Assembly (NCBI GenBank): GCA_000004695.1
Contig: CM000155.2
Location: forward strand, 1,408,001-1,472,000
Length of the DNA: 64,000 nt
DNA from: Dictyostelium discoideum
Lineage: Eukaryota
Direction: 5' to 3'
Below, piece by piece: positions 30,508 through 45,680 of this stretch. The stretch's first letter is position 1; each line of letters starts with the position of its first letter. The notes beneath the pieces were generated by a model, which was not told the DNA's origin, made no database searches, and saw nothing but the letters and a program-made list of their open reading frames with translations. Made by a program: the position numbers and the translations under genes.

Positions 30508-32245
30508 ATGAACTCAGCATCAAAGTTATTTGTTGTTTTGGCTTCACCAGCCAACCAACGTAATATGGCCACCTTAAAGGATCGTATGTAAACATATATA
30601 AAAAAAAAAATAATAATAATAATAATAAATAAAATAATAAAAAAAAATAAAAAATAAAATAAAATAAAAGAATCTTTTGATCACTTTTTTTTTTTTTTTT
30701 TTATTATTTTGTTTTATTTTATTTTTTTTCATTTTATTTTTATTTACAAAAATAAAAAAAAAATGAAAAAAATAAAACTTAATCATTCATAGTGTAATCA
30801 AACAAATTGTCACAACTACCATTGCCACATTAAAAAAAAAAAAAAAAAAAAAAACAACCCCAGTGTGAACAAACATCAAAAAAAAAAAAAAAAAAAAAAA
30901 TCAAGATAAAAAAAAAAAAAGAAAAGCAATAGTTATACAAGAATATAATTACATAATAACATATAGATCAATCACTAATTTTAGATACGAATAGTCAAAT
31001 TGTCAATATTGATAAAAAACAAAGAATTCCAAAAATTTCATCAAAATTTTTCAAATTTAAAAAAAATTTTTTTTAAAAAATAGCACTCAAATTAATGGAG
31101 AAATTATAGCTTTATACAATGATAATCAAGTATTTATATTTTATTGAAAAGTGGTAGTAATAATCATTATGGTGTGGTTGTGGTTGTGGTTGTGGTTGTG
31201 GTTGTGGTTGTGGTTGTGGTTGTGGTGTGGTAGTTGATGATGAAAATGACAACGATTATACACTATATTACAATAAAAATAATGATATCTTTTATAAAAA
31301 ATTGATATTAATACTTTTTATTTATTTAATTCATGATTCAAATTAATGAAAATATAAATCAATTAATAATAATAATTAAAAATAATTTAAAATAATATAG
31401 TTAAGATTCGTTTAGGTACTGTTAAAACCATTTCTAAACTTACCAAAACTTTACATATGGTAGCTTCATCAAAATTACGTAGTGCAGAAAAGAAAGCAGA
31501 AGAATCAGGTCCATACAGTGTTGGTCCACAAAAAGTTTTAGGTGTAGTAGAAACTGCTGATGCATTCAACACCGCCACTGAACCAATTGAAGATAGATCA
31601 AATAAACAACTTTTAATTGCCATCACCACCGATACTGGTATGTGTGGTCCAGTTAATCATCAAATCATCAAAACCATTAAAGCCCTCCTCAAAGATGATG
31701 CCAAACAAGAGATTTTAGTTTCAACCACTGGTTTGAAAGGTGTTGCACCAATCGTTGCCGATTTCCCAAATCAATTTTTGATAAATGGTCGTGATTTTGG
31801 TAAAGCAGATTACAGTTTCCCAGAAGTTTTACTTTTCTTAAATGAAATCATTAGCAAAGTACCAAATTATGACTCTGCTCTCGTCGTTTACAACAAATTC
31901 AAAAATGCCCTCTCATACAGTGTCGATCGTCAATTCATTCCAGGTTTCAATCTCCTCGAATTAAATCGTGATAAATTCTACGAATATACTACCTCTGAAG
32001 ATCGTGCTGCCACCATGAAAGATCTCTCTGAATTTTATTTAGCCTCATCCTTATGGACTGGTTTATATCAAAACAGAGCCTCTGAAATGGCTGCTCGTAT
32101 GGTTGCTATGGATAACGCTTCAAAGAATGGTGAATCTATTTCTCAAGCTCTCGGTCTCCAATATAACAGAGCTCGTCAAGCTATGATTACCTCTGAATTA
32201 ATTGAAATCGTTTCTGGTGCCAGTGCAATTGAATCAAGTGATTAA
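30508..32245 (+). CDS. atp5C1: mitochondrial ATP synthase F1 gamma subunit. Proposed exons: 30508..30583 and 31401..32245, separated by an unusually long 817-nt intron.
   Basis: Exon 1 is MNSASKLFVVLASPANQRNMATLKD (compare human ...QVRNMATLKDI) and ends at donor GTATGT 30584. Exon 2 follows acceptor AATATAG (31400) and reads LKIRLGTVKTISKLTKTLHMVASSKLRSAEKK...ITSELIEIVSGASAIESSD, the full-length gamma-subunit fold, matching ORF 31457..32245. Confidence 0.88.
31171..31232. repeat. (GGTTGT)n hexanucleotide repeat of about 10 units inside the atp5C1 intron
   Basis: GGTGTGGTTGTGGTTGTGGTTGTGG... is a G/T-rich island in an intron that is otherwise more than 85% A+T. Confidence 0.85.
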
Positions 32246-36956: not shown

Positions 36957-37993
36957 TTATTTAAAATATAATTTATTATTTAATAAATTAAAAGGACAAC
37001 CTGAAATTGAGGTATTATTTGAACCTGATTTTCCATTTAAACCAACCAAATTACATTTTATATCGATTTCATTATTTGAAGTTGTAATTTTGAATGGAAT
37101 TGAAAAGGGTAACATATTGACCTCTAATAATTCAAGGTCATCACCACCTTGACCAACGGTGAAACTTTTAACATTTAATTGATTTACAATTTGAGTTGGT
37201 AAATTTTTATTTGTTGTTAATCTACATTTAATAACACCACTAATTTGATTTATACCAGTGATACTAGTATTATCTAAATATAAATCATCTAAATAAAATA
37301 GAGATGATAATAGTCTACTACACATCGAATTAAATAATTGATTATTTAATAAATATGATCTAACATCACTCTTTAATAATGATTTTAAATTTTCATCAAT
37401 AATTGAACTTGCTAATATTGTTTGTGGTTTCAATTCAACATTTAATCTATTAAATAATGTTGTTGATTTATTATTATTTTGATATGAATTTACCATTTCA
37501 TTAAATAAATCACCACAATTATCAAAATTATTATTATTATTATTATCAATAATATTATTATTACTGTTATTATTATTAATATTATTAATATTATTTAAAA
37601 GTGTATTATTACTACTACCAATTGATGAAAATAAATCAATATTATTATGTGGCCAAATTGTTTTAATCTCTTCTAATGCTAATTTACATGGATTATTTGT
37701 TAAATTACCACCATCTCTAAATTTCTCATTTCCAAATTTATATGATGGAAATAAAGTTGGTATTGCAGTAGTTGCAGCGGCAGCATCTGATATTGATGAA
37801 TTTTTAATTTCTTTTATTCCATCAACTGTTGGAATTTTATTATAATTTGAACCAATTGAAAATATACATGGTGTTAATTTAATTGATGATCGATTATTTG
37901 AATTGTTAACACCACCAACAACATTTGTAGTTTTAATTATATTTTCTTCTAAACATGATACCACTGCAACTTTAATATTTGAATTTATAAAAA

Positions 37994-38024
<31 letters not shown>

Positions 38025-38771
38025 GTTATGATTATTATTATGAAGAAAATTATGAACATGATGATAATGATTATTATTATTATGATTATTATTTTGATTA
38101 ATTTGATTATTTTGATTATTAATTTGATTATTATTTAATGAGTATCTATGAATATGAGAATTATTAAATTCATGTTGTAATACTTTTGTAAATTTATCAG
38201 ATTTATATTTATTCTTTTTTGAAAATAGATAATTATTAATTTTAATTGGACTATTTGATTTAAATACTTTTCTTGATAGTTTTTCAAATAGATCAATTGT
38301 TTGATTTGGTGTTTTATTAGCGGCCAATGCTAACAAAGTTATACCACCACTTGATGATCCAATAACATAATCAAATAATTCACTAATTGGTATCCCATAA
38401 AGTTGTTTTTCAATTTCGTCTAAAATACAACATTGAACTATACCACTTTTACTAAATCCAAAATTACTACTAATATTACAATTATTATTATTATTTAAAT
38501 TATTATTATTATTGTTATTTAAATTATTATTACTATTATTATTATTATTATTTAAATTATTATTATTATTATTATTAATATTATTATTATTATTATTAAT
38601 ATTATTATTATTATTAATGGTACAATTATTATTTATATTATTATTATTATTGATACTATTTAAAGTGTCAATATTATTGCATCCATCTAATGATAGTACT
38701 CTTATTCCCATAGATGGTTTTAAACTATTGTTATTGTTATTAATATTATTATTATTATTAATATTATTATA

Positions 38772-38803
<32 letters not shown>

Positions 38804-39531
38804 GATAATAATTTAAATTACTATTATTTTTTATAGCATTTACACCAGTTAAATCTTTTGGACAAATTGTACAATTACCATTTTGTTCAATTGAACAATA
38901 TGAACAAATTACATGACCACATGGTGAACATTCAATTGAAGGTACTGATAATAAACAACCAAAACAAACTTTAGTTGAATTAATTATATCAGTTTTCCCA
39001 TCACAATTATTTACTTGATCAAGATATTGGTTAATCATATTAAATGATAATTTATCTAATTCTGTATTTAAGAAACTTGATAAATCTGTAAATGTTATAA
39101 CTGATTGAAAATCACCACTCCAACTAACTGTAAATGGTACTTTAAATTTATTTTGTTGAATTTTATTTGTAGATGAACTTGTATTTGAAGTTGTAGTACT
39201 AGTATTACTATTTGAGTTGGACTGTTGTTGTTGTTGTTGTTGTTTTAATTTTTGTTGTTGTAATTGATTTTGTTGTCTTTTAAATCTCCAACATGATAAA
39301 AATGAAGTTGGTTTTTCAATTATCATTTGATTTCTTTTTGTATGATGAAATTCATGATTTGATTTTGGATTATCACAACTAACCATAATACCATTATTAA
39401 TTATTGTTGAATTACATGGAATAAAACCTTGAATATATTCTGAAACATTAATTAAAACATCATTAAATTGTTTTGAAATTTCTTTTTTATTACTTTCACT
39501 ACCATTACTATTATTTTTACTATTGTTGATT

Positions 39532-39590
<59 letters not shown>

Positions 39591-40355
39591 TGAGGAGTTT
39601 AAAGAATTTATTGAGATTAATTCTTCATATCTTCTATTAAATCTTAAGAAAACCTCAACTAATCTATTCATTACTTCACTAATTGATTTTTCATAAATTT
39701 CAACTTTAGTAATTGGGATTATTGGTTGAATATTTCTTGGTGTTGGTAATGGTGATGGTAAATAAAAACCATTATTACCATTATTAGCATTACCATTATT
39801 ATTTGTATTTGTTGAATCAATAGTTTGTAATTGTTGTTGATATTGTTTTTTATAAAGGTTATAATGTAAATCAAAATATGATTTTAAATATGATTCCAAT
39901 GAATTATATGCATTACTTAATAATTTACTATTATAATTTGATGCTGATGAAGATGAGGATGAACCAATATTATAATTATTTGAATTATTATTTGTAAAAT
40001 AACTACCACTTGTACTAAATGTTGAATATCTATAATTATTACCAATTGTTAAATAATCATAATCAAAATTCTTTAAATATTTAAATGAAGGATATGATGA
40101 ACTAATTGCATTATTTTGTGTTGGTGTATATGATGAAGTTGCTGATGTACTTTTTTGTAATTTTGGTGTTAAAGCATCATTATTAATTAAATTATCATTA
40201 TTATTATTATAATTATTATTATTATTAGAACAATTTGTTGTTGTGGTTGTTGTAGTAGTGGTAGGTTGTTGTGGTTGTTGTTGTTGTTTAACATTTGATA
40301 ATGATAGAGGTGGACAACTGGATATAATCTTGGTGATGGCAATGTTGGTGATGAG
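36957..40355 (-). CDS. patatin-like phospholipase domain protein: the C-terminal long ORF of a large Asn-rich protein. Its frame stays open upstream to about 40355 with no start codon.
   Basis: ORF 36957..39899 contains the patatin catalytic dyad motifs GSSSGG (GxSxG; DYVIGSSSGGITLLALAANKT) and DGG (NEKFRDGGNLTNNPCKLA). It also has a Cys-rich cluster (CFGCLLSVPSIECSPCGHVICSYCSIEQNGNCTICP) between poly-N tracts. Upstream the same frame reads ...KQQQQPQQPTTTTTTTTNCSNNNNNYNNNNDNLINNDALTPKLQKSTSATSSYTPTQNNAISSSYPSFKYLKNFDYDYL... with no ATG. Confidence 0.7.
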
Positions 40356-40515
40356 TAAGAGTATGATAATGAAGATGGGGTTAACATTCTTTCAATTTTT
40401 TTCATTTTTCCTAATTTATTTTCTTCTTTTTTACTACCACTATGATTATTATTACTATTATTACTATTAGTAGTAGTGGTAGTTGTAGGAGTAGAAGTAT
40501 TGTTATTATTGTTAA

Positions 40516-40579
<64 letters not shown>

Positions 40580-41426
40580 AGTACCGATATTAATAATTGG
40601 TTTAATAATTGTTTTATTTGATTTTAATTCATTGTCAATTGGTTTTTGTTGATTTATTAAACTTTCATTTATAATTGATTCGATTGATTTTAAATTGATA
40701 TTTGATACAATTGATGTTGATCTTGATGGAGGAGTTGGATGAGATGGTAATGGAGAACAAGGTTGTTGTGGTGATGAACATATATTAATTGAAATTGATC
40801 TATTTCTTGGAGGAGTTAATTGAATTGGAGTAATTTGTCTTTTTAATGAAGGTGATGGTATTGGATAAGGTTCTGAAATTGTTAAAATTTCATTTGGTTT
40901 TGATTGTTGAACAGCTTGTATTTGTTCTTGTTGTGGTTGTTGTTGTTGTTCTTGAATATCATTATTTGTTAGAACATTATTTAAAATAATTGGAGATGGA
41001 AGAGATATTGAAATCTCATCCATTGTTGATATTGGTGATGAAATTGATGTTGATAATGATTCATTAAGATCACTTGATGATAAATATGGTGATGGTATTG
41101 GTTCATCCATTAATTCTTTATTTTCATCAACATCAACAATAACATTTTCATTTACTTTTCTATTATTATTTATATTATCTTTTTCATCATCTTCATTTTT
41201 ATTATCATTGTCACTCACTAAACATATATCAATATTGTGATTATAATTTTTAATTAACCCGTTGTCGTTTTCATTTATAATTTGTAAATTAATATTATTA
41301 TTTTCAATATTTTCATTATTTTCATTATTTGTAAGGTTACTATTTTTTATATTATTATTATTATTATTAATATTATTATTATTAATATTATTAATATTAT
41401 TATTTAAATTATTACTATTTTTATTT

Positions 41427-41476
<50 letters not shown>

Positions 41477-41892
41477 TATAATATTAATATCATTATTATT
41501 ATTATTTATTGATAATAAATTTGGAGATTTTAGATTTTCAAATTCTTTTATAATATTTTTAACAGAGTTAGATGACAAGCTATGTCTATGACTTGGAAGG
41601 TGGACTTTGTTTATATTGTTTTTATTATTATTATTATTACTATCAATATTATTTTCATTATTTTCATTACTTGTAGGGTTAAATAAATTTGAATAATTTA
41701 ATAATTCATCAGATTTTTTAAAAAATAAATATAAGGTGGGGTCAGAATTTGTTGATATTGGGTCTTGGATTAATGGGAGTGAGTTTGATTTTTTATTTTT
41801 AGTAAAAAAATTTATATTATTAATGGTGTTAAAATTATTTTGAGTTATAATATTATTTTCAATTTCCTTTATTCGATTTTTTACACTATTAT

Positions 41893-41924
<32 letters not shown>

Positions 41925-42121
41925 TTATTAAAATTCGTTTTTGTAAATTCACTCCCATTACAATTACTTGAAGATATTTGATTTGGTTGGCGATTATTGA
42001 TTATATTTTTAAAATTATTATGGGATGTATATAAATAAAGTTGTGATGTATGATTTTGGGTTTGTGTGTGATTTTGTAGACTTTGAGATTTAATTTTATT
42101 TTTATTTTCATTTGATACCAT
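40187..42121 (-). CDS. Ser/Pro/Asn-rich ORF with a genuine ATG at 42121. It is probably the N-terminal part of the patatin-like gene, which it overlaps in a different reading frame.
   Basis: The 644-codon ORF looks coding (PIPSPSLKRQITPIQLTPPRNRSISINICSSPQQPCSPLPSHPTPPSRSTS...). It ends in an implausible poly-Ile tail from (ATA)n at 40187-40230, over a stretch where the +2 frame encodes natural poly-Asn. See the finding on the frame discontinuity. Confidence 0.5.
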
Positions 42122-45607: not shown

Positions 45608-45680
45608 GGTTTTATAGTGTAATTGGTTAGCACCCAGGACTTTGAATCCTGTAATCTGAGTTCGAGTCTCAGTAGAACCA
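45608..45680 (+). tRNA. tRNA-Gln (anticodon UUG)
   Basis: GGTTTTATAGTGTAATTGGTTAGCACCCAGGACTTTGAATCCTGTAATCTGAGTTCGAGTCTCAGTAGAACCA folds as a cloverleaf. The 7-bp acceptor stem is GGTTTTA/TAGAACC with one T-G pair. The D-arm is GTGT..GCAC. The anticodon stem is CAGGA/TCCTG with loop CTTTGAA, giving anticodon TTG. The T-arm is CTGAG-TTCGAGT-CTCAG and matches the B-box. The discriminator is A and there is no encoded CCA. Confidence 0.85.

Follow-up and report, generated by a model that had tools for sequence, protein, structure and literature searches.

The window analysed here is a 64,000-nt stretch of Dictyostelium discoideum DNA, to which all coordinates refer; the gene, the ORFs and the conserved blocks described below all lie on its minus strand. 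Three proteins encoded in the window, hemE (EAL61271), ATP synthase gamma (atp5C1, Q54DF1) and presenilin-B (psenB, Q54DE8), are exact matches to AX4, and we infer that the window derives from chromosome 6 of this strain. The gene under study is located between psenB and the RING/F-box/WD40 gene fbxwD (DDB_G0292312), its upstream neighbour, identified as such from PMC10539598. An unusually long (~4 kb), very AT-rich spacer separates the ATG of the gene at 42121 from fbxwD (ORF from 46104), and a tRNA-Gln(TTG) occurs within it at 45608-45680 (+). Elsewhere in the window, the coding segments of atp5C1 are ~817 nt apart (~30583-31400, +), which is long for a Dictyostelium intron; the intervening sequence opens with GTATGT, and within it are a (GTGGTT)n tandem repeat and long runs of A. 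The features of the gene are as follows.

36957..42121, minus strand: the whole gene, a single intronless coding region of 5,165 nt in the window and 5,166 nt with one A restored
40187..42121, minus strand: ORF A, with ATG at 42121 and TAA at 40189-40187, 644 codons
36957..40391, minus strand: the patatin reading frame, open from just past a TGA at 40394-40392 to the stop at 36957
40190..40391, minus strand: the overlap in which both frames are open, ~200 nt
40313..40314, minus strand: site of the missing base, GT followed directly by CC in the window and GT-A-CC in all other assemblies (codon GTA, Val, in ...LYPVVPPLS...)
41947..41949, minus strand: a second anomaly private to the window, which reads GTGAATTTAC where 5/5 others read GGAATTAC (preceded by T or A)
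40325..40390, minus strand: conserved block RMLTPSSLSYSYSSPTLPSPRL, in the frame of ORF A, matching RIHSPSSLAYSYSSPALPSPKL of D. purpureum
40068..40160, minus strand: conserved block LQKSTSATSSYTPTQNNAISSSYPSFKYLKN, in the patatin frame, matching LQKSTSSTSAYTSYQNSVISSSYPSFKNLRN of the same continuous D. purpureum ORF
38859..38966, minus strand: RING-like Cys/His motif CFGCLLSVPSIECSPCGHVICSYCS...CTICP (zf-C3HC4_3, E=2.6e-4, 21.2 bits, below the cut-off of 27)
37677..38702, minus strand: patatin-like phospholipase domain, RVLSLDG..., with GSSSG at 38346-38360 and RDGGN at 37704-37718

In the window sequence as it stands, the gene appears as two long, partly overlapping reading frames. A preliminary description of this DNA had recognized the first of them, a 644-codon minus-strand ORF at 40187..42121 with a real ATG, and both its limits and its start codon hold. 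The patatin frame lies at -1 relative to ORF A. Over the bases of the ORF A tail it reads ...TTTTTTTTTNCSNNNNNYNNNNDNLINNDALTPKLQK..., and over the shared bases it has the natural-looking ...PQQPTTTTTTTTTNCSNNNNNYNNNNDNLINNDALTPKLQK...; the disparity previously noted between a poly-Ile-like tail in ORF A and poly-Asn in the patatin frame is borne out by the translations. The last stop upstream in the patatin frame had been placed at about 40358, although it is in fact the TGA at 40394-40392. The same description had found no ATG, TTG or GTG in that frame upstream of 39899. This is correct as regards ATG, of which there is none from 40391 down to the first, at 39671, but the TTG 'start' at 39899 is an artefact of a bacterial start-codon table. 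At the base composition of the window, the probability that a codon is a stop by chance is p=0.094, which gives p ~2e-28 for an open run of 644 codons and ~7e-50 for one of 1,144 codons, so neither run can be attributed to chance.

Five other assemblies, three of D. discoideum and two of D. cf. discoideum, were used for comparison, their syntenic loci being retrieved by way of the psenB and ATP-synthase-gamma proteins. These assemblies most likely come from a published set in which AX2-214, CR116C, OT3A, M4B, S6B and other strains were sequenced with Nanopore plus Illumina (Holland et al., PMC12745789), and the closest locus to the window, which we will refer to as L001, is most likely that of AX2-214. 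The window and L001 are 99.44% identical over 21.7 kb, in agreement with the 99.5% identity reported between AX4 and AX2 at another locus (PMC12745789). Two further loci labelled D. discoideum, L003 and L004 (probably OT3A and CR116C), differ from the laboratory lineage by a dS of ~0.06-0.08 in this gene, which fits a published remark that OT3A/CR116C-type isolates are genetically diverged tropical isolates.

In each of these assemblies the gene upstream of psenB is one call in one open frame, and since its length is three times that of the product plus the stop, it contains no intron. Product lengths are 1,721 aa (L001/L002, GCA_054883475.1), 1,685 aa (L003), 1,708 aa (L004) and 1,800 aa (L006), together with one of 1,808 aa (L005) that runs off the fetched locus. 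All five end in NNKLYFK*, and the four complete calls start with MVSNENK. The 5,165 nt of the window differ from the 5,166 nt of L001 in three respects only: at 41949, at 41947, and in an extra A which L001 has between 40314 and 40313 (L001 position 6044). The 3,357 nt below 40313 are identical in the two.

This A is present in 5/5 of the other assemblies, all of which have CCAGTTGTACC; the window reads CCAGTTGT-CCACC at the site, as against CCAGTTGTACC[A/C]CC elsewhere. In L001 the codons are CCA GTT GTA CCA CCT CTA (P V V P P L), where the window has CCAGTTGT-CCACCT. Insertion of one A into the window yields 1,721 codons without a stop, reading ...SPRLYPVVPPLSLSNVKQQQQ... and, across the site itself, ...KIERMLTPSSLSYSYSSPTLPSPRLYPVVPPLSLSNVKQQQQPQQPTTTTTTTTTNCSNNNNN..., and the resulting 1,721-aa product is that of L001 except at residues 58-59. 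The segment KIERMLTPSSLSYSYSSPTLPSPRLYPVVPPLSLSNVKQQQQPQQPTTTTTTTTTNCSNNNNN is invariant in six sequences save for an M/L exchange at its fifth residue in L006, while the low-complexity tracts that flank it vary in length. Just downstream of the site, L005 and L006 carry substitutions (CCA>CCC, CCT>CCA, TTA>CTA), all of them synonymous in the repaired frame. Across the D. discoideum and D. cf. discoideum assemblies, dN/dS relative to L001 is 0.33-0.51 in the N-terminal half, upstream of the site, and 0.13-0.21 downstream; the two halves are subject to purifying selection as parts of one gene. A tryptic peptide of the repaired protein, LYPVVPPLSLSNVK, spans the site of the missing A.

The syntenic locus of D. 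purpureum (L007; GL871455.1, 4614-8486), which adjoins the same RING/WD40 neighbour, contains one continuous ORF of 1,290 codons that extends from MVSNKNNYHS... to the patatin C-terminus. Its annotation comprises two models, of 705 aa and 437 aa (DICPUDRAFT_93179). Because the DNA is one continuous ORF, this division looks like an annotation artefact. Since both conserved blocks listed above match this single ORF, one in the frame of ORF A and the other in the patatin frame, homology to one protein changes frame in the window between 40390-40325 and 40160-40068. This is the outcome of the comparison with a dictyostelid orthologue that the preliminary description had put forward as a check.

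The position of the change can also be obtained from the window alone. A codon-usage log-likelihood, trained on ten other long ORFs in the window, places the maximum-likelihood change-point at 40314-40316, with positions 40305-40331 lying within 6 bits of it. Coding potential remains continuously positive over the junction and does not sink where the ORF A frame gives way to the patatin frame. In ORF A, the first 603 codons are the genuine N-terminal part of the gene and the last 41 an out-of-frame tail; in the patatin frame, genuine coding sequence begins at 40313 and continues downward. The two ORFs belong to a single ordinary gene of ~1,721 codons without introns, which looks split owing to one missing A; the lesion lies between 40314 and 40313 and is private to this sequence. 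Much of what the preliminary description had proposed from the letters alone is in accord with this. It had anticipated a single protein of roughly 1,700 aa (1,721 aa after repair, and in the nearest other assembly), a change of frame inside 40187-40360, a coding rather than intronic character for that region, and, as one of its explanations, a 1-nt indel in the assembly or the strain. As to how the arrangement comes about, loss of the A shifts the frame by one in an otherwise intact gene; the 603 native codons run into a 41-codon nonsense tail, its poly-Ile being derived from an AAT/ATA repeat, and the other 1,117 codons show up in the next frame as an ORF without a start, with neither splicing nor recoding involved.

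By its sequence, the N-terminal half of the intact product is long, disordered and rich in Asn, Ser and Pro; after it come a RING-like zinc motif, a patatin-like phospholipase domain and, at the C-terminus, a conserved domain. The match to Pfam Patatin (PF01734) exceeds the cut-off (E=1.4e-18, 68.2 bits against 27.7), and the intact L001 protein scores 67.3 bits. Like other PNPLA/PF01734 proteins, which likewise exceed the cut-off of the patatin model, it has both the GxSxG nucleophile motif (GSSSG) and the DG[AG] motif of the catalytic Asp (RDGGN). Unlike those proteins, members of the D. discoideum group show no contiguous Gly-rich oxyanion loop (DGGGxRG): the loop is broken by an Asn-rich insertion of ~73 aa, so that it reads LSLDG-CNNIDTLNS...CNISSN-FGFSKSGIVQ, against LSLDGGGGIRSIVQ in D. 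purpureum. The insertion, at 38463-38681 (-), is polymorphic in length, and the GxSxG and DGG motifs are retained in its presence. Considered by eye as a possible in-frame intron, it seems an unlikely one: its boundaries, TGT (5') and TTT (3'), are not GT..AG, and the one GT..AG pair that was tried would change the frame.

Three dictyostelid paralogues (P0002, P0003 and P0005) share with this protein a RING-like motif (CxxC...CxH...C), the patatin domain and a C-terminal domain running from SLFYLD to ISGCPF. They differ in that a Cys/His-rich region and a Walker-A, NTPase-like domain occupy the place where the orthologue, that of D. purpureum included, has its disordered half. The Walker-A domain (GxxGxGKS) gives weak, sub-threshold matches to GTPase families (MMR_HSR1, E=0.004; septin-2, E ~0.3), and the architecture of the paralogues, Cys/His-rich, Walker-A, RING-like, patatin and C-terminal domain, appears to be undescribed. 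The 'patatin family protein' reported as an ErkB target, DDB_G0292746 (PMC6397043), was considered as a candidate for the present gene and set aside, for it has a PH domain and a C-terminus of ...DSSIPLTPR; the phosphopeptides TLPSPR, LTPPRNR and ALTPKLQ were looked for in the supplements of that paper and not found.

Searches of a protein collection contributed little. The whole patatin frame returned no hit, with 8,000 low-complexity candidates and with the intact 1,721-aa product itself absent from the collection, and exact look-ups of the ORF A product and of the product starting at ATG 39671 found neither on record. With the C-terminal 344 aa as query, the sole match was DICPUDRAFT_93179 of D. 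purpureum, the collection being without the D. discoideum products, so that the lack of an AX4 model there carries no weight. The intact product is called in GCA_054883475.1, yet the searched collection lacks it, and no Pfam hit has been precomputed for it. The collection appears to omit proteins with a very high content of low-complexity sequence, so that failure to find a homologue of a Dictyostelium protein of this kind is uninformative.

The lesion is either an ordinary sequence defect or, at most, a null allele private to one strain, and between these two we consider the former the probable one: that the A was lost through a mistake in base calling or assembly of a Sanger-era, reference-type sequence, and that the organism itself has no such defect. 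Only one assembly carries the lesion, the A is present in an independently made assembly of a near-identical strain, and a discrepancy of the miscall type occurs nearby. This second discrepancy, the pair at 41947 and 41949, 2 nt apart, amounts to the loss of a G and the gain of a T and converts GI to EF (NGSEFTK in the window, NG[S/N]GITK in the others); it reads as a compensated indel, typical of trace miscalls. The missing A itself is outside any homopolymer or repeat (GTACC > GTCC). Between the window and L001 there are 64 difference events over the 21.7 kb, nearly all of them in A/T homopolymer lengths or in AT-rich intergenic DNA, and repeat lengths within the gene are all equal. The only coding differences over that distance are the three in the patatin gene, with none in ~13 kb of neighbouring coding sequence. 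The later decay that would mark a strain-specific pseudogene was looked for below 40313, window against L001, and none was found. We favour a technical error because the A is outside a repeat, there is no decay downstream, a second miscall-like pair is present, and two independent real events within 5 kb are unlikely. The locus resembles known frameshift errors of reference assemblies in that one base is lost in a unique context in one assembly only, with a miscall-like pair close by, and in that elsewhere the gene is always intact and evolves under purifying selection.

The one serious competitor to an error, though the less likely by some way, is that the A is truly absent from the laboratory lineage behind the sequence (AX3/AX4), removed by a recent mutation private to that lineage. 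The allele would then be truncated and probably null, encoding 603 native and 41 junk residues with neither RING nor patatin domain, while AX2 and the wild strains would be intact. The lesion is unambiguous in the window sequence and absent from all other assemblies, laboratory strains do fix loss-of-function mutations, and two anomalies in one gene could also signify relaxed constraint in a real pseudogene. There is also precedent in tgr loci that are pseudogenes in AX4 and have uninterrupted frames in other strains (bioRxiv 10.1101/2025.10.22.684067). As in other pseudogenes or null alleles of laboratory strains, a disabling frameshift in one strain is accompanied by an open frame in the rest, but here the lesion is single, no further decay has followed, and the closest laboratory relative, presumably AX2, is intact. 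Against a real deletion, moreover, the site is not prone to slippage, and the changes at 41947-41949 would demand another independent event within 5 kb, where the ~13 kb of neighbouring coding sequence has none. Genuine point differences between AX2 and AX4 are also, as a rule, far less common than the errors left in an AT-rich assembly of the Sanger era, which likewise counts against it.

The remaining explanations dispense with a missing base altogether. It is highly improbable that ORF A and the patatin ORF are two genes, the second starting at an upstream exon or at the internal ATG 39671. That ATG does exist, and the D. purpureum orthologue has been annotated as separate 705-aa and 437-aa models, but D. 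purpureum has an unbroken ORF, each of the five assemblies has a single ORF with start and stop in common, and both protein conservation and codon usage continue over the junction.

An intron, either spliceosomal with weak sites or non-canonical, by which the two frames would be joined has still less in its favour, and the suggestion of a non-canonical intron in the preliminary description can be rejected. Enumeration of all phase-restoring GT..AG pairs with a donor anywhere in ORF A gives 93, among them the two already named in that description, both of which exist: 40292->40150 (143 nt; donor GTTAAA, 76.9% AT) and 40231->40071 (161 nt; GTTCTA...TTTAAAG, 80.1% AT). Both of these have weak donors and an AT content resembling that of coding DNA. 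None of the 93 (0/93) is above 83.8% AT, and the leading candidates are without a GTA(A/T)GT-like donor, having for instance GTATCA, GTTAAA or GTTCTA. By way of control, intron 1 of psenB has 73 nt, a GTATGT donor and 84.9% AT, and its removal rebuilds the first 300 aa of AX4 psenB exactly. Coding potential shows no dip across the region; excision of the 161-nt candidate would take with it a block that is conserved in D. purpureum; and the same splice would destroy the frame in L001 (probably AX2) and in the other assemblies, which read the same DNA, plus one more A, colinearly as one ORF. The hallmarks of Dictyostelium introns that were looked for, namely the donor, the AT content, the loss of coding potential and a need for the intron in relatives, are absent here, and the relatives have colinear intronless ORFs.

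Least probable of all is a passage from ORF A into the patatin frame by programmed -1 ribosomal frameshifting or by slippage during transcription: the -1 relation of two long overlapping frames, both open for ~200 nt, is indeed what programmed sites display, but a scan of 40391-40190 found no X XXY YYZ heptamer in phase, the sole homopolymer of four or more in that interval is CCCC at 40380 with no long A/T run, and the two-frame layout is not conserved, 6/6 related loci encoding the product in a single frame. Production of the full-length protein from the deleted allele by recoding is very improbable.

The locus should be modelled as one intronless gene of 1,721 codons, with an A restored after 40314 (-); models that make it a pseudogene, give it an odd intron or divide it into two genes should be avoided. 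Its D. purpureum orthologue should be merged into one model of 1,290 codons. No new mechanism of splicing or recoding is revealed here. If the deletion were real after all, the most widely used reference laboratory strain would be a natural knockout of a conserved RING/patatin gene that purifying selection maintains in wild strains and for which AX2 is wild type. There would then be a hidden loss-of-function difference between the two main laboratory lineages, one that could contribute to phenotypic differences between AX2 and AX4.
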